From Thermodesulfovibrionia bacterium (GTDB lineage: Bacteria; Nitrospirota; Thermodesulfovibrionia; UBA6902): a DNA stretch of 64,000 nucleotides. Below, piece after piece: positions 2,521 through 56,778 of this stretch; positions within the stretch are counted from its first letter, which is position 1, and each line of letters begins with the position of its first letter. The notes under the pieces were generated by a model that saw only the letters and a program-made list of their open reading frames with translations, did no database searches and had not been told where the DNA came from. The DNA lies in assembly GCA_020053105.1 (NCBI GenBank), contig JAGVNU010000076.1, positions 8,005-72,004 of the forward strand. The letters are read 5' to 3'. The position numbers and the translations under genes are program-made.

Positions 2521-3720
2521 TTATTTACCCGCTTTTTCATATAATATTTGTTGAACGTCGTCACTGACTTTCTTTATGTTTACATTTGGAAAAGAAACGC
2601 AGAATGTGCTGCCCTTTTCCTGGTTTCTATATGCCCTTATGAAGCCGTCATGGGTCTGCATAATTTTATTGGCAATGGCAAGCCCCAGTCCTGTCCCCTT
2701 GTCCTTTGTGCTGAAAAAAGGGTCAAATATTTTTTCAATGTTCTCCGGACTGATGCCCTCTCCGTCATCGATGACGGACACAGTCACATATTCATCGTTA
2801 ACGTCCGTGGCAATTTTCAGATGGCCTCCGCCGGGCATGGCCTGCACCGCATTCAGGATTATATTCATGAATACCTGTTTCAATAATTCCATGTCACTGC
2901 GCACGACCACACGGGACGTAACCTGAGCAAGCTTAATTCCTCTTATTTGTATAAGGGGAATAAGCATGTTAACTGATTCCGAAATAGCCTCAGAAAGTTC
3001 TATGTCCGTAAAAGCAGGTTTTTGAGGCTTTGCGAAAAAAAGCATATTGGTAAGAATATTATTCAGACTCTTGATGCCTGTGGAGATACCGTTTGCCATA
3101 TCGGAATGGGACGTGTCTTTGAGATCGTTGGAAAGCATGGTTGAGAAAAGCTCAATACTGCATAAGGGGCTTCTTATCTCGTGGACTATTTTTGCGGCCA
3201 TTTCACCCATGGATATGAGCCTCTGATTTCGTTCGTGCTGACGCTCAAGCTCCTTGATCCTTGTGATGTCCTTGATCAAAACCACATAGCCCCTGACCGA
3301 ACCTTCCGGCCCTGATACGGTTGATCGGGAGAGTATTACATCATAAGTCGTCTCCTTCACAGTCAGTCTTGTGCCTGAGGTGCTTTCTTCTACAGAGAAG
3401 GGCAGATCGCGAAACATCATCCCTGTGACATCCTGTTTACGTGAACAAAGAAGGTCCTCTGCCGCCCTGTTAAGCATCGTTACCCTGTCTTCCTGGTCAA
3501 GGACTATTATTGCTTCTCCTATGCTCTGTAACACCGCCTGCAGATAATCTTTTGACTCACCTACTTCCAGGACCGCCCTGTTGAGCTGTGTGTTCTTCTG
3601 TTCCAGTTCCAGCGTAAGATACTGGACCTTTTCCCGGAGTTTTTCGTAGTATGTCTCTAAGCTTCTGGATGCCTGCGTGAAATTATGGAAGGCCTCATTC
3701 AGCTTGACCGCTTTCTCCAC
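2521..3720 (-). CDS. Cytoplasmic PAS sensor histidine kinase, FlrB/FleS-like by context
   Basis: Contains a PAS region, the H-box VHEIRSPL and HATPase motifs (DDGEGI, GTGLGLAI). I prefer the GTG start at 3720, which has AAGGAGG about 8 nt upstream and overlaps the upstream stop as TAGTG. The alternative ATG at 3873 would overlap the upstream gene by 153 nt. Confidence 0.85.
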   Translation of the reverse strand: MEKAVKLNEAFHNFTQASRSLETYYEKLREKVQYLTLELEQKNTQLNRAVLEVGESKDYLQAVLQSIGEAIIVLDQEDRVTMLNRAAEDLLCSRKQDVTGMMFRDLPFSVEESTSGTRLTVKETTYDVILSRSTVSGPEGSVRGYVVLIKDITRIKELERQHERNQRLISMGEMAAKIVHEIRSPLCSIELFSTMLSNDLKDTSHSDMANGISTGIKSLNNILTNMLFFAKPQKPAFTDIELSEAISESVNMLIPLIQIRGIKLAQVTSRVVVRSDMELLKQVFMNIILNAVQAMPGGGHLKIATDVNDEYVTVSVIDDGEGISPENIEKIFDPFFSTKDKGTGLGLAIANKIMQTHDGFIRAYRNQEKGSTFCVSFPNVNIKKVSDDVQQILYEKAGK

Positions 3721-29297: not shown

Positions 29298-30179
29298 ATG
29301 TCATTTATCCTTGACGCGCTGAAAAAACTGGAACAGAAACGTCAGCATGGTGCAGTGCCGGACCTGATGACCATCCATGCGCATGAACGTCAAAGGCATG
29401 AGAAGCGGACGCTATGGCCCTACCTTGTCCTGGGGGCGTTAGTGCTGAACGCAGGCATATTAGCAGCCGTGCTCCGCCCATGGGAGGCTGAAAATAAAAA
29501 ACCAATCATCCAGGCTTCTGTTGAGCAGCTCCAGAAAAAAGCCTCGCAGAGTCCCACCCAGCACATTGAAAAAAAGAACGAACCGGTATCTGTATCGCCT
29601 CAGATCAAAACAAGCTCCCATGTCCCCGGTAATAAACCGATCAATACTAACGTGTCGTCGGGTCCCGTAAAAAAAGCCGCTGACTTAAAGAAAGTTGTCC
29701 CTCTGCCAAAGCAGGGAAACCCACCTGCCCCGGTTGAGCAAAAAATAAAGGGGCCACTTAAAGTTGAAAAAGCTCCTGTTACAAACAAGCTGGATTCAGA
29801 CACAGGCAGTCCGGCTGCGCTCAGCATGAATCCATCCCGGGATGAAATGGAGGTCCTCCGTAACAGAATCAAAGAAGAGACATCTCAAGCAGGCAGCGCC
29901 CGGCCCAGGAAAGACACCCCTGTCAGTAATGAGAAAGCCGATTCAGACACACTACCTGATTTCAGCCAGCTTCCTGAAGAGACAAGAAAGGAAATTCCCA
30001 ATATAAACATTTCCGCACATATCTATTCAAACAATCCGCGTTCACGGATTGTTAATATTAACGGCTCTACTATAAAAGAAGGCGATGAGGTGACTAAGGG
30101 GCTGAAGGTCAGCGAGATAACCATATCAGGCGTAATCTTCGACTATCAGGGCCGCCGCTTTCAGGTGAGGGCATTTTAA
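29298..30179 (+). CDS. gspB: GspB/ExeB-like protein
   Basis: The N-terminus MSFILDALKKLEQKRQ is followed by one TM segment and a Pro/Lys-rich linker. The C-terminus reads NISAHIYSNNPRSRIVNINGSTIKEGDEV. It is tightly coupled to gspA by a 2-nt gap. Confidence 0.72.
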   Translation: MSFILDALKKLEQKRQHGAVPDLMTIHAHERQRHEKRTLWPYLVLGALVLNAGILAAVLRPWEAENKKPIIQASVEQLQKKASQSPTQHIEKKNEPVSVSPQIKTSSHVPGNKPINTNVSSGPVKKAADLKKVVPLPKQGNPPAPVEQKIKGPLKVEKAPVTNKLDSDTGSPAALSMNPSRDEMEVLRNRIKEETSQAGSARPRKDTPVSNEKADSDTLPDFSQLPEETRKEIPNINISAHIYSNNPRSRIVNINGSTIKEGDEVTKGLKVSEITISGVIFDYQGRRFQVRAF

Positions 30180-50724: not shown

Positions 50725-52011
50725 ATGCATGCAATAATAAATAACATTACGGAAAATTCCATTGCAGATGAAATAGGCCTTGAAAAGGGAGACATGCTTC
50801 TGACTCTTAATGGCCACCCGGTAAGGGACGTCATAGATTACATGTTCCACTCCAAAGACGATGTCCTTGAAATAAAAGTCCAGCGCGGCAAAAAAACCAA
50901 TACTTTCAAAACAAAGAAAATTGAGGGTGTTCCTCTGGGTATTGAATTAAAATCTTTCAGAACAAAAGCCTGCAGAAATAAATGCATGTTCTGTTTCGTC
51001 AACCAGCTCCCCAAAAACATGAGAAAAACCCTGTATCTGAAAGACGATGATTATCGAATGTCTTTTCTCTTCGGTAATTACATAACCCTTACGAACCTGT
51101 CATCAGAGGACAGGAAACGTATTATAGAGCAGAAACTCAGTCCTTTATACATCTCTGTTCATACGACCAATAACGAGATCAGGCGGAAAATGCTCGGCAA
51201 TCAAAAAGCGCCTGATATTATGAAGGAGATTCAGGACCTTACGTCAAACAGAATCAGACTTCATGTTCAGATAGTTTTATGCCCCGGATTAAACGATGGG
51301 GAAGAGCTTTCCAGCACAATTAAAGACCTGCAGAAATTTTATCCCTATGTGGCATCCATAGCAGTCGTGCCCGTAGGTCTTACGCGCCACAGAAAAAGCA
51401 TTCTCAGGCCTGTTGAAAAAAATGACGCCTTGAAAGTCATCGAAGAGGTCAAAAAGTTCAGGCAGAGATGCAGCAGACGCCACGGCGACCCGATTGTACA
51501 CCTCGCCGATGAATTTTATATTAAAGCAGGAGCTGTCTTCCCCCCTGTTAAAGAATATGGAGACCTCCCCCAGATAGAAAACGGAGTGGGCCTGGTCCCT
51601 GTCTTTTTACATTCTGCAAAAAAAATAAAACTGCCAAAAAAAATCGAGCCCGTAAAGGCAGCTGTCATAACAGGCGCGTCGTTCATGCCTTACCTCGAAG
51701 AATTTGCCAAAAAGTTAAATACAATCGAGGGACTCAGTCTCGAAGTATTTAAAGTGGAAAATAGATTCTTTGGTCCTTCCGTGACAGTGACCGGGCTTCT
51801 CACAGGAAAAGATATTTTAAAAACAATTGTCGGCAGGACAAAAGCCGACTGCCTGCTGGTGCCGAATGTCACTCTCAGGGAAGGCTCCGATATGTTTCTC
51901 GACAACGTCACGCTGAAAGACATGGAGGAGAGCCTTGGAATGCGTGTTAAGACAATCGAACCTACGCCGGAAGGGCTTTTAAGAGGGATAACAGATGGAT
52001 GTATGCGGTAA
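50725..52011 (+). CDS. PDZ + radical-SAM-like + DUF512 protein
   Basis: 428-aa ORF with an N-terminal PDZ-like segment and the cluster CRNKCMFC. The DUF512-type C-terminal half is assigned from memory. Confidence 0.7.
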   Translation: MHAIINNITENSIADEIGLEKGDMLLTLNGHPVRDVIDYMFHSKDDVLEIKVQRGKKTNTFKTKKIEGVPLGIELKSFRTKACRNKCMFCFVNQLPKNMRKTLYLKDDDYRMSFLFGNYITLTNLSSEDRKRIIEQKLSPLYISVHTTNNEIRRKMLGNQKAPDIMKEIQDLTSNRIRLHVQIVLCPGLNDGEELSSTIKDLQKFYPYVASIAVVPVGLTRHRKSILRPVEKNDALKVIEEVKKFRQRCSRRHGDPIVHLADEFYIKAGAVFPPVKEYGDLPQIENGVGLVPVFLHSAKKIKLPKKIEPVKAAVITGASFMPYLEEFAKKLNTIEGLSLEVFKVENRFFGPSVTVTGLLTGKDILKTIVGRTKADCLLVPNVTLREGSDMFLDNVTLKDMEESLGMRVKTIEPTPEGLLRGITDGCMR

Positions 52012-52831
52012 GACTAAAATAACAGGCATCTTCGGATATCCGATAGAACACACACTTTCGCCCTTAATGCATAACGCTGCCTTTAAGGCGCTTAATCTCG
52101 ACATATGTTATGTCGCATTTAAAGTATTGCCTGAGGCTTTGCCGCAGGCGGTCCAGGCGATTCGCAGTTTAAACATGCTCGGAGTCAACATTACCGTTCC
52201 CCATAAAGAGAAGGTCATATCTCTGCTTGATAAAGTAAATGAAGAAGCATCATTCATAGGTGCGGTTAATACTGTTACTAATAAAGAAGGAATTCTGACC
52301 GGTTTCAATACAGACGGAAGAGGATTTCTGAGTTCATTAACAGAAGAAGGCATTTCCATCGAAGGGAAAAACATCTTAATAATCGGCGCCGGTGGGGCAT
52401 CGAGGGCCATCAGCTTTTACCTGAGTGAAAAGGCATCGGCACTGTCTCTGTTTGATACAGACAGACCCAAGGCACAGAAACTTGTAAATGACCTCAACCT
52501 GATACGCGGCAATGTCAGTTTAGTAAATAATATAGAGGACACGCCACTACCTGATATTGTTATAAATGCAACCCCTCTCGGACTTAAACCAGATGACCCC
52601 CTTCCCTTCAATCCCGAATTAATTACGTCCAAAATGGTCGTATGCGACCTGGTTTATAAAAAAACCGGCCTTTTGAACGTGGCTGAACAAAGGGGGGCGA
52701 AGATTATTGACGGCTCAGGCATGCTGTTATGGCAGGGGGTCCTTGCATTTGAACTCTGGACCGGGATAAAGCCTCCTGTTGATATTATGCGTAATATGCT
52801 TCTTTCAAAAATAAGAGTCGTTTCAACATAG
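51995..52831 (+). CDS. aroE: Shikimate dehydrogenase
   Basis: GIFGYPIEHTLSPLMHNAAF, NITVPHK and GAGGASRA are present. It overlaps the previous gene by 17 nt. Confidence 0.9.
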   Translation: MDVCGKTKITGIFGYPIEHTLSPLMHNAAFKALNLDICYVAFKVLPEALPQAVQAIRSLNMLGVNITVPHKEKVISLLDKVNEEASFIGAVNTVTNKEGILTGFNTDGRGFLSSLTEEGISIEGKNILIIGAGGASRAISFYLSEKASALSLFDTDRPKAQKLVNDLNLIRGNVSLVNNIEDTPLPDIVINATPLGLKPDDPLPFNPELITSKMVVCDLVYKKTGLLNVAEQRGAKIIDGSGMLLWQGVLAFELWTGIKPPVDIMRNMLLSKIRVVST

Positions 52832-52962
52832 CATTAAAGACCAATTATCATTTCTAATAATCAGTAACGCTAATAAACCTCTATACTTTCATTGCGTTGT
52901 CAAAAGATTTTTCTCATAATCATTCAGAAAGGCGAATCGGCATAGTACACAAAAAAAAAACA

Positions 52963-53045
52963 GGTGCTGATCAGTTGAGGGGACATGGTTTAAGTTTGTT
53001 TGGGCTCTCGTTAGGCGGGAAAACTTATAACCAAAGATCAGCACC
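52963..53045. repeat. Structured repeat unit 1 (83 nt rod-like hairpin)
   Basis: The closing stem is GGTGCTGATC/GATCAGCACC and the inner helix is GGTTTAAGTTT/AAACTTATAACC. The loops are G-rich. A10 lies immediately 5' and a T-rich tract lies 3'. Confidence 0.75.
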
Positions 53046-53062
53046 CATTTTCTTATTTAAGA

Positions 53063-53150
53063 GGATGCTGACCTTTATTGAGGGGACATGGTTTAAGTTT
53101 ATGTGGGCTCTCGTTTTAGGCGGGAAAACTTATACCAAAGGTCAGCATCC
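53063..53150. repeat. Structured repeat unit 2 (88 nt)
   Basis: It has the same core as unit 1, about 90% identical by eye. The closing stem is changed on both sides to GGATGCTGACC/GGTCAGCATCC. Confidence 0.75.
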
Positions 53151-53627
53151 AAGCTCTTATTTATGTATTATTCAAAGTATTTTGCTAAGTCCGTTCCTCC
53201 GAGAATAAAACCTGTATTTTTAAGCTGTTAGCCTTGCATTGCTATTTCAATTTATTACTAAATTTGTATCGGTTTTATTTCTTATGAATTATCTTACCAT
53301 TTTATTTTCCTTAAGGCAACCCCCTAGTTTATTTTTCCAGTCCCCTGCTCTTTTTCCTGAGCTAACTACCAGAAATACCACAAGAACCATAGCAAATCAC
53401 TTCTGGAAGATTCTTTTTCAAATTTCGACTTGTGCAAGTTTGTGATATCTTCATGTTTGATTTACAGCTGATTGGTGAGCGAAGAAAAGAAAAATAAATA
53501 AAGGGCGCTGACCAGGTTCGGGGGACACGTAACGCATAGATTTTTTGCAGTGATAAACCTTTTACCCAGTGGTGAGCATACTATGATCGCTATATACAAT
53601 CCAGGAATAAAGAAGCTACCAACATAG

Positions 53628-54275
53628 TTATACCGATGTCAGCCCTTCGCGAATCGCATACTTGGTCAGTTCTGCAACATTGCGGATATTTAATTTGCCC
53701 ATGACCTGCCTGCGATGTGATTCTATGGTTTTCGCACTTACGTGCAGATCGGTCGCAATCTGCTTTGTTGATTTTCCTTCAGATATAAGCTGAAGAACTT
53801 CGCGTTCCCTTTCAGTCAACAGAGAAAACGCCTTGCGGCTTGACTGGGTTGTCTGATTTACAAGACTTTCCACAACAAGGCTGGCTATCTGCGGGTTGAT
53901 ATACGTTTTCCCCTCCATAACAATACGCACAGCATGCTCAAGTTCATCAAAGGCGCTGTCTTTGATCAAATAGCCTGATGCGCCGGCCTTGAATATTTCT
54001 GATACAAACTGCTTATCATAATGCATTGACAGGGCGATGATCTTGACATTAGGATAGTCGGCAATAATTTTACGGGTCGCATCGATTCCGTTCAAGTCGG
54101 GCATGCTTATATCCATAATAACAACATCAGGTGAAAGTTCCCTGACCAAACTTATGGCCGTCCTTCCATCGGCAGCTTCCCCAACGACTTCCATATCGTC
54201 ATACACCTTTAGAAGGGAGCAAATACCATCACGAAGAATTTTGTGATCATCTACCAATAAAATCCTTGTCTTCAT
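53628..54275 (-). CDS. NarL/FixJ-family response regulator (REC + LuxR-type HTH)
   Basis: 215-aa ORF with ILLVDDH, VIMDISMPDLNG and a C-terminal LTEREREVLQLISEGKSTKQIA. Confidence 0.9.
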   Translation of the reverse strand: MKTRILLVDDHKILRDGICSLLKVYDDMEVVGEAADGRTAISLVRELSPDVVIMDISMPDLNGIDATRKIIADYPNVKIIALSMHYDKQFVSEIFKAGASGYLIKDSAFDELEHAVRIVMEGKTYINPQIASLVVESLVNQTTQSSRKAFSLLTEREREVLQLISEGKSTKQIATDLHVSAKTIESHRRQVMGKLNIRNVAELTKYAIREGLTSV

Positions 54276-54276
54276 A

Positions 54277-56640
54277 TTAACTCCTTATAGATACTTTATT
54301 ATCAAACATTAATGGAGCAACCAGAGTGACCCTGGTACCCCTGCCAGGGATGGATTTGATTTCAAATTGCCCGTTAATATGGTTCATTCTTTCACGTATG
54401 TTAAATAGTCCATAACCGTCGTAGTTGAGAGAGGGTTTGAAAAATCCGATCCCGTCATCTTCAAGGACAATGCGCAGGTTATTGGCTTCCTGGGTCATAA
54501 TGATGTTTGCCTTGGTTGCCTGAGCATGTTTCACAACATTAACCAGCAGCTCTCTTATTGCCTGAAAAAGGAAAAATCGCGTATTGTTGTTAAATGGCTT
54601 GTCCTGGCCATCATCTATTAATTCAATATCGAGCCCATGTTTTTCACGAAATTGATCAATGAGCCATTTAATGGCCTGGCTGAGCCCTAATTCGTACAGT
54701 ATAGGCGGACTAAGTTCAAAAGTCAATGTCCGTGTTTCTTTAATCGTCTGTTCAATTAGATGGAGGATCTCCCTGATATTATTTTTGAGTTCCTCAGAAG
54801 GTGCAGACTTGTTTAGAAGTCCGAGTTTGATTTTAGCAAGTGCGAGAGTCTGCCCAATGCAGTCATGCAGTTCCGTTGCGATGCGTCTTTTTTCATTTTC
54901 CTCAATCAAAGACAGCTGGGAGGTAAGCAATTGAAGCTGTTTTTGATAATCAAGAAGTTTTTTCTCTGCCGTCTTACGGACGCGGACCTCAACTTTAAGA
55001 TTTTTATTCGCCTCTAATAATTCACGGGCCCTCTCTCTCACGAGTCCTTCAAGCTGTTCATGATGTTTGAGTATATTTTCCTCTGTCCGCTTGCGTTCCG
55101 TGATGTCACGGTCAATTGCAAGAACGTAAGGATTTTCACCTATGTGAACAAGCTGGGCTGATACATCTACCGAAAAGCGTGATCCGTCTTTCCGGACATG
55201 CCTTCCTTCAAAAGTCACCTTTTCGCCGCCCTGCAGGCGAAGTGATCTTTCCATTATATGTTTAGCGCTGTCAGGGTCATCGAGAAATGCGATAGGCTGC
55301 CCGATCATTTCTTCCCTTGAATATCCGTGCATCATTAACGCAGCATCATTAGTATCTTCTATGATTAACCCGCCCTGTGTAAAAGACAAAAGAAAAATAC
55401 TGTCGGAAGCCTCATTGAAAAGTGTCCGGAACTTAGTCTCGCTTTTCTTGAGCGCATCCTCTGCCATCATACGCTCAGTCAGGTCCCTTATGATGCCGAT
55501 CATGCATATAGGCTGCCCATCGGAATCATTAACTATAAAAGCAGCTAACCATACCGGACACATTTTCCCATTTTTATGTTTGATTATTAATTCGCCGTCC
55601 CATTTTCCGTTCTTTTTTATTTCGGGCAATATTTCCCTTTCAGCAAACTCGGGGTCTGCGTTCATCACAGCAACATTTTCGCCGACTAATTCTTCATGAG
55701 AAAACCCGCAGATTTTTTCGACTGCACTATTAGAATAGAATATGTGTCCGTCAAGGTCTACTATCTGAACCCCATCCGGGGATTTTTCCACTATGTCGGA
55801 AAACAGCTTCAATTTTGCGGTACGTTCCTCTGTTATCTGCTCCAGTCGCTTGCGGTATTCTTCCAGCTCTTTTTCCGTCTGTATACGACTTGTTATGTCA
55901 CGGAATACAATAACAACCCCGTTTATATTACCTTTGTCGTTTTTAATCGGGGCTGAACTGAGTTCAATGGCCCTATTTATTTTTTGTGGAGAATGCAATA
56001 TGTAACTTGTCTGGGTAATTGTTAAACCTTCATTGATAATTTTACTTAAGGGGTCATCATCTTCCCTGCCCTTTTCGTCCGACATGATGCTGAAGATTTC
56101 CGCAAGATTCTTTTTTCTCGCGTTTTCGAGTTTCCATCCGGTCAAAGACTCTGCAAGAGGATTCATGAATATTATCAATCCCGTATTATCAGTGGAGATT
56201 ACCGCGTCATTTATACTGATGAGAGTTGTATAAAGCTGGGATTGGCTTGCTTTGAGCTTATTCTCCATTTCATGCTTGTAGAGGGCCAGTTCTATTGTCG
56301 CCTGCATTTCCCTGTCTTTAAAGGGTTTTACCAAATACCCGCAGCCCCCTGATTTTTTTGCCTGCTCAAGTATAGCCTCGTCAGTATATGCGGTCAGGTA
56401 TATGACTGGTATATCAAAGCTGGAGATTATCTCTTTGGCGGTTTCTATGCCGTCCCTTTCACCCTGCAATACAATATCCATAAGGACAAGGTCGATTTTT
56501 TTTGTTCTTACATATTCGATGGCTTCGCTTCCGGTGGCGGCAATTGACGGGACGATATATCCTAAATTGGTCAAGCTGGTCTTCAGGTCACTGGCGATTA
56601 TCCATTCATCTTCAACAATGAGAATTTCCGGTTTGGCCAT
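54277..56640 (-). CDS. REC-PAS(x3)-HisKA_3-HATPase sensor histidine kinase
   Basis: The N-terminus is a canonical receiver domain, followed by three PAS-like regions. The H-box is ATELHDCIGQTL and the C-terminus is an ATPase domain. I prefer the ATG at 56640; a TTG at 56661 is also open. Confidence 0.88.
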   Translation of the reverse strand: MAKPEILIVEDEWIIASDLKTSLTNLGYIVPSIAATGSEAIEYVRTKKIDLVLMDIVLQGERDGIETAKEIISSFDIPVIYLTAYTDEAILEQAKKSGGCGYLVKPFKDREMQATIELALYKHEMENKLKASQSQLYTTLISINDAVISTDNTGLIIFMNPLAESLTGWKLENARKKNLAEIFSIMSDEKGREDDDPLSKIINEGLTITQTSYILHSPQKINRAIELSSAPIKNDKGNINGVVIVFRDITSRIQTEKELEEYRKRLEQITEERTAKLKLFSDIVEKSPDGVQIVDLDGHIFYSNSAVEKICGFSHEELVGENVAVMNADPEFAEREILPEIKKNGKWDGELIIKHKNGKMCPVWLAAFIVNDSDGQPICMIGIIRDLTERMMAEDALKKSETKFRTLFNEASDSIFLLSFTQGGLIIEDTNDAALMMHGYSREEMIGQPIAFLDDPDSAKHIMERSLRLQGGEKVTFEGRHVRKDGSRFSVDVSAQLVHIGENPYVLAIDRDITERKRTEENILKHHEQLEGLVRERARELLEANKNLKVEVRVRKTAEKKLLDYQKQLQLLTSQLSLIEENEKRRIATELHDCIGQTLALAKIKLGLLNKSAPSEELKNNIREILHLIEQTIKETRTLTFELSPPILYELGLSQAIKWLIDQFREKHGLDIELIDDGQDKPFNNNTRFFLFQAIRELLVNVVKHAQATKANIIMTQEANNLRIVLEDDGIGFFKPSLNYDGYGLFNIRERMNHINGQFEIKSIPGRGTRVTLVAPLMFDNKVSIRS

Positions 56641-56778
56641 TACCAAATTCCTGTTAACCAATATATATATTTACATGAGGGCTTTTGTGAAATATTCTAT
56701 AAATAAATTGAATTGTTTTACAACTGACTCAGAAGATATTTATAAGGGTAGATTCTGGGGAGGAAAGATCTATGCTTC

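Follow-up and report, generated by a model that had tools for sequence, protein, structure and literature searches.

What does a bacterium keep in a spacer of 796 bp in which no credible protein-coding gene can be found? The question is raised by a stretch of 64,000 nucleotides from a Thermodesulfovibrionia bacterium of the phylum Nitrospirota (NCBI GenBank assembly GCA_020053105.1, contig JAGVNU010000076.1, positions 8,005 to 72,004 of the forward strand), which we call the window. The spacer is the meeting point of two convergent genes, namely aroE (51995-52831, plus strand; Pfam Shikimate_dh_N and SDH_C) and a gene for a NarL/FixJ-type response regulator (53628-54275, minus strand; REC and GerE domains by Pfam and NCBIfam), and a preliminary description made from the sequence had drawn attention to two tandem rod-like repeats within it. 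Here we propose that these repeats belong to a family of small RNAs (sRNAs) of about 100 nt that are encoded on the minus strand, would act in trans through C-rich loops pairing with G-rich ribosome-binding sites, and would be tied to the adjacent two-component system. We put the probability of this reading as a whole at roughly 60%.

Structure and covariation of the spacer repeats

Two tandem units had been placed at 52963-53045 and 53063-53150, and both are present. Unit 1 (52962-53046, minus strand) is the 3' domain of the tandem and unit 2 (53063-53150, minus strand) its 5' domain, with a linker of 16 nt (53047-53062, minus strand) leading from unit 2 to unit 1. The near-identical core that had been attributed to them is found as shared blocks of 38, 24 and 30 nt, which are 83-100% identical and lie 103-105 nt apart, and in the whole 64 kb there are exactly two occurrences of a 23-nt core, compared with 0.00 expected by chance. 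The terminal stems had been said to differ in sequence and yet to remain complementary, which proved correct: the closing stem comprises 10-11 bp in unit 1 (53036-53046 with 52962-52972) and 14 bp with 100% complementarity in unit 2 (53137-53150 with 53063-53076), and in the model alignment two double changes separate the units, G-C versus A-U and U-A versus C-G. The inner helix was likewise found in both. Each unit folds better than its shuffles on either strand (z -4.3 to -7.1; 0 of 200 shuffles fold equally well), with -25.1 kcal/mol for unit 1 (z -5.3) and -31.5 kcal/mol for unit 2 (z -7.1), and the 212-nt dimer of units 2 and 1 is predicted to form two separate rods (-66.6 kcal/mol, z -8.1). 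The stem differences between unit 1 and unit 2 are identical in four genomes and would, we infer, disfavour cross-pairing between the units.

The repeats have relatives. When 185,579 representative genomes were scanned with a 20-nt A-type core (both tandem units are of the A type of the family), only two matched, the metagenome-assembled Nitrospirae L001 and L002, with one syntenic locus each; L numbers denote related loci throughout. Both have the same order as the window, namely the 3' end of aroE, unit 1, unit 2, a conserved block, a third unit and the regulator gene. The three genomes are 92-96% identical over the stretch that begins at the A-run, includes units 1 and 2 and closes with the tail after unit 2; the coding end of aroE is 63-77% and the remaining spacer 27-67% identical. 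A degenerate pattern derived from the conserved loops yielded 24 metagenome contigs, and viral contigs scanned with the degenerate family pattern gave 0 matches. A covariance model (R1) built on a hand-drawn structure then recognised 41 strong copies in the first set of loci, including second and third copies that the pattern had missed, and, after loci had been added, 49 distinct copies in 30 loci at E <= 1e-8, all apparently from Nitrospirota. In the window, the covariance-model matches span 52954-53049 for unit 1 (minus strand, 57.3 bits, E 1.9e-13) and 53055-53153 for unit 2 (minus strand, 62.2 bits, E 6.8e-15).

Across the family, one unit forms what we term a closed rod of about 95-105 nt. 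A G+C-rich stem of 12 bp (P1) joins the 5' and 3' ends and, together with the U-tract that follows it at the 3' end, doubles as an intrinsic terminator; inside it lie the helices P2 (4-5 bp) and P3 (about 8 bp), an asymmetric 3' internal loop with the sequence CCAUGUCCCCU(A/C)A, and an apical loop of 20-25 nt of the form UUUCCC(N)GCCUA...GAGAGCCCA. Two C-rich motifs are exposed, CCAUGUCCCCU of the internal loop and UUCCCNGCCUA...GAGAGCCCA of the apical loop; they vary hardly or not at all between copies and are unpaired in the folds. Both A-type units of the window match the internal-loop motif exactly (52978-52988 in unit 1 and 53081-53091 in unit 2, minus strand), a motif that is (near-)invariant in the alignments of 26 and 49 sequences. 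According to the alignments, the conserved apical loops read, on the RNA strand, UUUUCCCGCCUAACGAGAGCCCA in unit 1 (53001-53023, unpaired in the predicted folds) and UUUUCCCGCCUAAAACGAGAGCCCA in unit 2 (53104-53128).

Covariation carries most of the structural argument. Over 25 modelled pairs and 49 distinct sequences, 92.7% of the cells are paired, as opposed to 82.9% in shuffles; changes on both sides occur at 20 of the 25 pairs, cells with a double change number 118 versus 27 expected, and none of 500 shuffles equalled any of the covariation measures. When the partners were slid by 1-3 columns, only 31-48% of the cells were paired. P1 is paired in 97.4% of its cells, with compensatory changes at nine of its 12 pairs. 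Helix variants such as GAUGCUGACC, GAUGCUGGCC, GAUGUUAACC and GGUGCUGAUC each come with their matching complement on loops that are near-invariant, and such a combination of varying helices and fixed loops is typical of RNA modules. RNAalifold run on a plain MAFFT alignment recovered the outer stem only, because indels misalign the inner helices, a difficulty that was solved by the hand-drawn structure and the covariance model. We regard it as close to certain that the spacer repeats represent a real structured RNA family, and the earlier argument for selection on a folded nucleic acid, rather than on ends recognised by a transposase, is strengthened by the extent of pairing, the 20 compensated pairs and the synteny with 92-96% identity. 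The idea of a pseudoknot formed by the two loops was dropped, as both are C-rich and no covarying complementarity was seen.

Two subtypes can be distinguished by their inner helices. In the B type, P2 is CUGA/UCAG and P3 is UAAAAGGUU/AACCUUUUA; in the A type, P2 is UGGY/RCCA, reaching into a conserved CCAUG, and P3 is of the UAAGUUU/AAACUUA kind. On the RNA strand the order is B, A and sometimes a second A, in the window as well as in L001, L002, L007, L009, L011-L014, L024, L028, L029, L032, L034 and L035, while single B-type copies are found elsewhere (L015; L016, L021, L023 and L025; L019 and L022; L020 and L026). One B-type copy (L035:5970-6100) carries an additional hairpin of about 28 nt (CCCUGUACCAUAACCUGGUACAGGAU) in its apical loop after GAGAGCCCA and is otherwise intact, with 111.7 bits.

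The window has its own B-type member. What had been taken for a third half-copy is instead a full-length, decayed B-type paralogue (unit 3, 53495-53584, minus strand; 23.3 bits, E 0.0012), which has lost the apical loop and the 3' arm of P3 and has mismatches in P1; its orthologues score 86.4 bits (L001:7618-7722) and 97.0 bits (L002:6611-6712). The direct GGTGAGC repeats said to flank it also have to be reinterpreted, as one of them is the mutated closing-stem arm of unit 3 (GGTCAGC to GGTGAGC). Between the regulator gene and unit 3, L001 alone has a long palindromic element (L001:7830-7935; GTCATTTCGACCAGCGGGAGAAATC...GAGATTTCTCGCTTCGCTCGAAATGAC) that looks like an unrelated repeat or insertion. 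A further, weak hit in the window at 3143-3232 (plus strand, 16.1 bits, E 0.14) was put down to chance, since the invariant loop motif is missing from it.

The view that the spacer is free of genes holds for protein genes only. A Pfam search with its two open reading frames (ORFs) of 103 and 68 aa gave no match, and indels of 1 and 2 nt together with a deletion of about 37 nt disrupt both in relatives. The repeat spacing of 103-105 nt is not a multiple of 3, in line with the frame shift that had been noted for the 103-aa ORF between the copies, and a conserved reading frame is ruled out by the indels of 1-2 nt that the units contain. With RNA genes inside it, the spacer is thus not gene-free. 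An exact-protein look-up of the products of the flanking aroE and regulator genes returned no record.

Strand, terminators and promoters

Given the distribution of U-tracts, promoters and wobble pairs, the RNA is very likely encoded on the minus strand of the window, and the loops would therefore be C-rich. In the eight nucleotides that follow P1, T occurs 5.9 times on average on the C-rich strand versus 4.2 times on the other strand (35 copies), and at least five T are present in 29 of the 35 copies versus 14 (Wilcoxon p = 3.6e-5); the copies without a U-tract are mostly the upstream members of A-A tandems. Within P1 there are seven G·U wobbles versus two A·C mismatches on this strand, the internal wobbles stemming from three unrelated copies and both A·C from the extreme base of a single copy, and over all helices the numbers are 41 versus 12. 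The GGGGA and GGGA tracts that had been noted in the loops are real; they were read on the plus strand, and the functional loops would be their C-rich complement on the minus strand.

The run of ten A beside unit 1 was also seen correctly (52951-52960). On the RNA strand it becomes U10, abuts the 3' side of the closing stem of unit 1 and would supply the U-tract with which an intrinsic terminator closes the tandem RNA; a run of T8-T10 is kept at this position in L001 and L002. In the linker between units 2 and 1 such a tract is missing, as it is in all four genomes with an A-A tandem (window, L001, L002 and L005). As the U10 follows unit 1 and no such tract follows unit 2, the two probably form a single transcript of about 205 nt or longer that ends at 52951-52960. 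The suggestion that unit 1 acts as a bidirectional terminator would describe at most a side role, in that it may terminate aroE in this clade only. In L024, a tRNA gene (L024:1901-1973, plus strand, 64.1 bits) abuts the 3' end of a divergent A-type copy (L024:1988-2079, minus strand), with which it is convergent.

Upstream of ten B-type copies, TTTACA-N16-18-TAnnnT is found on the RNA strand at 24-110 nt from P1, compared with a background of 0.007 per 160 nt, and the clade of L003, L004 and L010 has TTGCAA-17-TATATT or TATTAT instead; judged by these motifs, the promoters are sigma-70-like. A sigma-54 promoter was not found by eye in the upstream regions. For the A-type tandem of the window two candidates exist. 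Immediately before unit 2, the stretch TGAATAAnACATAAATAAGAGCTT (53151-53175, minus strand) is invariant in three genomes, contains a -10-like CATAAA (53160-53165) and may be a proximal promoter, an assignment that is tentative because the -35 region is unconserved. Further upstream, a block facing units 2 and 1 (53286-53335, minus strand) is 78-82% identical in three genomes with flanks of 27-67% and reads TAGGGGG, TTGCCT (53314-53319), 17 nt and TGG-TAAGAT (53291-53296); its hexamers and the TG are conserved and the middle of the spacer is variable, it is confined to the window clade, and it is a plausible distal promoter for both units. Neither this block nor the units came up in a simple scan for promoters and terminators, which missed the block because only eight of 12 consensus positions match.

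The two marks of an sRNA gene, an own promoter and a Rho-independent terminator on one strand, are thus found together, the promoter of the A-type copies in the window being tentative, and we consider it likely that the units are produced as stand-alone sRNA transcripts. In addition, a GGAGG-like stretch (CGGAGGAAC) is present at 53196-53204, 45-50 nt upstream of unit 2 on the minus strand, and the same site reads GGGAGG in L001 and GGAGGAA in L002, with no conserved ORF behind it; within a longer precursor, it could pair with the C-rich loops.

Two-component linkage and proposed target pairing

The RNA genes lie directly downstream of the regulator gene, on the same strand, and the regulator is itself preceded by the gene of its partner, a sensor histidine kinase (54277-56661, minus strand; REC, three PAS, HisKA_3 and HATPase_c by Pfam). 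Kinase and regulator are encoded immediately upstream of the RNA and on its strand in the window, L001, L003, L004, L010, L011 and L012, the regulator orthologues before the RNA being 78-87% identical in the latter five. The linkage was retested from the regulator's side by searching for regulator homologues and fetching nine contigs, among them L027 (CP070788.1:1941946-1962593) and L028 (JACRMS010000037). Among the eight informative loci, seven carry one to three copies of the RNA at 0.2-1.2 kb downstream on the same strand, and the kinase architecture upstream of the regulator is the same in L027-L035. The ninth contig, L031, was uninformative as it ends 188 nt past the regulator gene. L031 and L002 are two contigs of one assembly (GCA_016222915.1), and L002 ends just past unit 3, so that in this genome an assembly break inside the spacer divides the locus. 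The 120 top-scoring regulator homologues listed share at least 77% identity, and wherever a source is named for them, the name is Nitrospirae, Nitrospirota or Nitrospiraceae. The suspected involvement of the adjacent NarL-type regulator thus finds support in the conserved linkage, but not in any identified binding site.

The surroundings of the RNA vary by clade. A fuller layout comprises panB, a HAD hydrolase gene, kinase, regulator, B, a two-CW gene, A, a rhodanese gene and a chemoreceptor gene, and this arrangement is ancestral-looking; in the window clade the genes after the regulator have been lost and the locus ends at the convergent aroE. The gene between B and A in many loci encodes a Cys-rich two-CW domain protein of about 102 aa (NCBIfam NF045718, 101.6 bits for L011) and is present at L011:1896-2204 (plus strand), L008:292-603, L027:10999-11307, L028:6533-6844 and L032:6333-6641 and absent from the window clade. 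Just downstream of A, a secreted single-domain rhodanese and one or two methyl-accepting chemotaxis proteins are encoded in L005, L006, L007 (3163-3672 and 3747-5408), L009, L028, L029, L032, L034 and L035, and in L011 a PBP-like binding protein takes the place of the rhodanese. These neighbours suggest a sulfur- or redox-sensing chemotaxis module. L015 differs in having a lone B-type copy (1569-1670) after a membrane-protein ORF (918-1415), upstream of which lies a c-di-GMP-I-GGC riboswitch (L015:776-854, plus strand; 60.1 bits, gathering threshold 59).

Such an arrangement invites readings other than a trans-acting sRNA. The RNAs might be an integral third component of a conserved Nitrospirota signalling module that comprises the PAS kinase, the NarL-type regulator, the two-CW protein, the rhodanese and the chemoreceptors; instead of working as classical antisense regulators, they would have their invariant C-rich loops read by a protein of that module, either as a sponge or scaffold or as a conditional terminator gating the sensory genes. 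We consider this improbable; if true, a rod read by a protein through C-rich loops would be a riboregulatory mechanism without a described counterpart. A little less probable still is that the units are cis-acting conditional terminators, or attenuators, between co-directional genes, whose loops dock a protein or ligand; its binding would open P1 and let transcription read through. Outside the window clade, most loci have B between the regulator and the two-CW gene and A between the two-CW and the rhodanese or chemoreceptor genes, every copy has a strong stem with a U-tract, and invariant loops on varying stems are typical of a ligand- or protein-binding site. However, the units are 92-96% identical among the window, L001 and L002 although the next gene, aroE, is convergent, and they are likewise kept without a co-directional downstream gene in L003, L010, L018, L027 and L033, where the next gene is on the opposite strand; the element is therefore independent of the downstream gene. 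Moreover, no gene separates B from the A that comes after it in L007, L009, L013 and L014, the gap from terminator to start codon is 150-260 nt or more, and no alternative antiterminator pairing was seen.

In the trans-acting reading that we prefer, the invariant C-rich loops would be the functional surface, and, as in RsaE/RoxS and LhrC, the exposed loops would pair with mRNAs at G-rich ribosome-binding regions; expression of the RNAs would be tied to the adjacent two-component system. Base pairing of the anti-Shine-Dalgarno type has, in our view, slightly less than an even chance of being the mode of action, and control by the adjacent regulator is a somewhat more tentative proposal. Targets were sought with RNAduplex among 57 initiation regions of the window and the neighbouring genes in the loci, which amounts to a few kb per genome. 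The best duplex in the window, of -20.3 kcal/mol, joins the A-type apical loop to the initiation region of aroE, with -24.0 kcal/mol for the counterpart in L001 and -23.2 in L002, and the Shine-Dalgarno region of aroE (window 51955-52000; GGGCUUUUAAGAGGGAUAAC, with AAGGGGGAUAAC in L001 and L002) has two segments complementary to this loop. Neighbouring genes have suggestive Shine-Dalgarno sequences, GGGAGGG or UAGGGG: in L007 and L011, chemoreceptor genes are preceded by UAGGGG, which is exactly complementary to CCCCUA, and for the Shine-Dalgarno region of the two-CW gene in L008 (UAGGGAGGGUAAA) a duplex of -23.0 kcal/mol with the B-type apical loop is predicted. At window 29618-29628 there is a near-match to the target motif, which lies inside a plus-strand gene and was rejected as chance.

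Several points weigh against our proposal. The initiation region of aroE is matched in pairing by 46 of 500 of its shuffles, so that the target predictions are not significant, and the same holds for the other top targets, ORF 30198 and ORF 56779, when compared with shuffles. The usual Shine-Dalgarno sequence in these loci is GGAGG, which mismatches CCCC at its A, and a generic anti-Shine-Dalgarno action is therefore not obvious. On the side of the two-component system, a binding site of the regulator was not identified, a GacA-box-like palindrome being absent upstream (by eye, not by a formal scan), and L030 has an orthologue of the regulator with no RNA downstream. In that locus (L030:4060-5648) the regulator is 87% identical, the kinase retains only HisKA_3 and HATPase (314 aa) and a glycosyltransferase gene follows on the opposite strand; the locus may have lost its RNA arm. 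The A-type promoter in the window clade is ambiguous, the proximal -10 lacking a conserved -35 and the distal block matching eight of 12 positions, and a "loop" of 80 nt within a terminator hairpin is unusual for an intrinsic terminator. Lastly, the shuffle and Wilcoxon tests are uncorrected for shared ancestry among the copies, and strand, ends and abundance of the RNA are all deduced from sequence.

Because the target is not established, a protein sponge has to be considered, and we judge it about as unlikely as the conditional terminators. Here the C-rich loops would sequester an RNA-binding protein, or the loops of the G-rich strand would titrate CsrA/RsmA under a GacA-type regulator. That both loop motifs, of 9-11 nt, are invariant in either paralogue type and that no convincing mRNA target was found would suit a decoy, but a protein binding C-rich loops is neither known nor encoded conservedly beside the RNA. 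As to CsrA, a unit read on the G-rich strand exposes AGGGGAC and GGCRGGRA, with two GGA motifs, and several RNA copies beside a NarL-type two-component system recall Gac/Rsm. However, the G-rich strand conflicts with the U-tracts, promoters and wobble pairs, and the box TGTAAG-N6-CTTACA was not seen in the same inspection by eye. The UvrY/SirA/GacA family is indeed the third-best NCBIfam match of the regulator, but its 181.8 bits lie below the cut-off of 280, and MctR scores higher.

Lesser alternatives and known systems

A plain intrinsic terminator consists of a short G+C-rich hairpin with a loop of 3-10 nt and a U-tract, with nothing else conserved. The possibility that the units are only elaborated, perhaps bidirectional, terminators of this sort for the convergent aroE and regulator genes, and that the RNA has no function, draws on the convergent spacer, on the A10 on one side of unit 1 and the T-rich tail on the other, and on the upstream A-run that about 14 of 35 copies also have. 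We consider it very unlikely, as P1 encloses about 70 nt with invariant loops and two co-varying helices, as the copies come in tandems or triples with own promoters 24-32 nt upstream and an identity of 92-96% across species, and as the element also occurs in contexts that are not convergent. That the units are a mobile repeat, of the miniature inverted-repeat transposable element or repetitive extragenic palindromic kind, or a DNA cruciform, with the stems as terminal inverted repeats, is scarcely credible: they are bounded by inverted repeats, measure about 90 nt and occur in several copies per locus, but their "terminal repeats" co-vary around invariant interior loops, wobbles and U-tracts are strand-specific, viral contigs gave no match, and the dispersed copies with conserved termini and target-site duplications by which the preliminary description would have recognised such an element were found neither in the 64-kb window, with its two intact copies and a GGTGAGC "repeat" that is a mutated stem arm, nor in the 185,579 genomes, where the A-type core is limited to two, at one syntenic locus each. 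A retron, a CRISPR element, a type III toxin-antitoxin system and a guide RNA were also weighed and set aside, as no partner gene that these would need is encoded close by.

The family of sRNAs that we propose appears to be undescribed. The repeats had not been matched to any known RNA family, and a cmscan of the 64-kb window against Rfam 15 agrees, with 0 matches at the gathering threshold; even at E <= 10 the spacer gave chance-level hits only (Plastid-psbA-4 with 21.5 of 56.8 bits, ceN61 and Vax2os1_2), and among 19 related loci Rfam found only tRNA and the c-di-GMP riboswitch, elsewhere in the loci. A full-text search of a literature library for the invariant motif returned unrelated primer sequences only, and a search of the literature on sRNAs in Nitrospirae brought up no description of the present RNA. 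A review from 2022 lists only three distinct annotated sRNAs for the whole phylum Nitrospirota (PMC9029176).

Nitrospirota are environmentally important and almost all uncultured, and their regulatory RNAs are almost uncharted. With some 50 sequences, a supported structure, a defined strand and a genomic partner, the family is ready for an Rfam-style model that could be used to annotate metagenome-assembled genomes. In addition, its fixed position behind one orthologous two-component system, in many cases with two-CW, rhodanese and chemoreceptor genes close by, raises the hypothesis that a chemotaxis circuit sensing redox state or sulfur has this RNA as an output arm. The closed rod, with its 5' and 3' ends joined by the terminator stem, is also an unusual layout for an sRNA.

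The kind of RNA is nevertheless a familiar one, that of multi-copy sRNAs linked to two-component systems and carrying C-rich loops. The neighbouring chemoreceptor genes, two of which have UAGGGG, bring to mind RepG of Helicobacter pylori, whose C/U-rich loop pairs with the G-rich leader of the chemoreceptor mRNA tlpB; the likeness is one of analogy only, as the pairing proposed here lacks statistical support and the two share no sequence. Qrr (beside luxO in Vibrio), OmrA/OmrB and PrrF1/PrrF2 are likewise paralogues that stand in tandem or beside the controlling regulator, as qrr1 does next to luxO, and have long invariant single-stranded seeds. The qrr genes, however, have sigma-54 promoters, an NtrC-type regulator and an orientation divergent from luxO, whereas the present RNAs have sigma-70-like promoters and a NarL-type regulator, lie downstream of it on the same strand, and show no homology to Qrr.

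CsrB and RsmX/Y/Z of the GacS/GacA system resemble the present family in the linkage of several structured RNAs, paralogues with short motifs repeated in their loops, to a NarL-family regulator, and the loops described here would carry GGA if read from the opposite strand. They differ in that here the C-rich strand would be transcribed, the GacA box is absent, the regulator scores below the UvrY/GacA cut-off and each unit would have no more than two motifs.

LhrC of Listeria and the csRNAs of Streptococcus are multi-copy, partly tandem paralogues with UCCC or anti-Shine-Dalgarno loops, controlled by the two-component systems LisRK and CiaRH, respectively. The present family shares with them the multiple, partly tandem paralogues and the C-rich loop motifs; it has no Rfam match to them, and their genes do not lie beside a two-component operon and encode a series of small hairpins rather than a rod closed by a terminator. 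RsaE/RoxS of the Bacillales are about 100 nt long, end in a terminator and have exposed CCCC motifs that pair with G-rich Shine-Dalgarno regions, and their expression depends on the two-component systems SrrAB/ResDE. Size, terminator end and C-rich motifs are thus held in common with RsaE/RoxS, across a distance of phyla at which no homology is evident (none by cmscan even at E <= 10), whereas the RNA of the Nitrospirota is distinguished by a terminator stem that encloses the whole molecule, by tandem paralogues of the B and A types, and by a candidate two-component system encoded right beside it.

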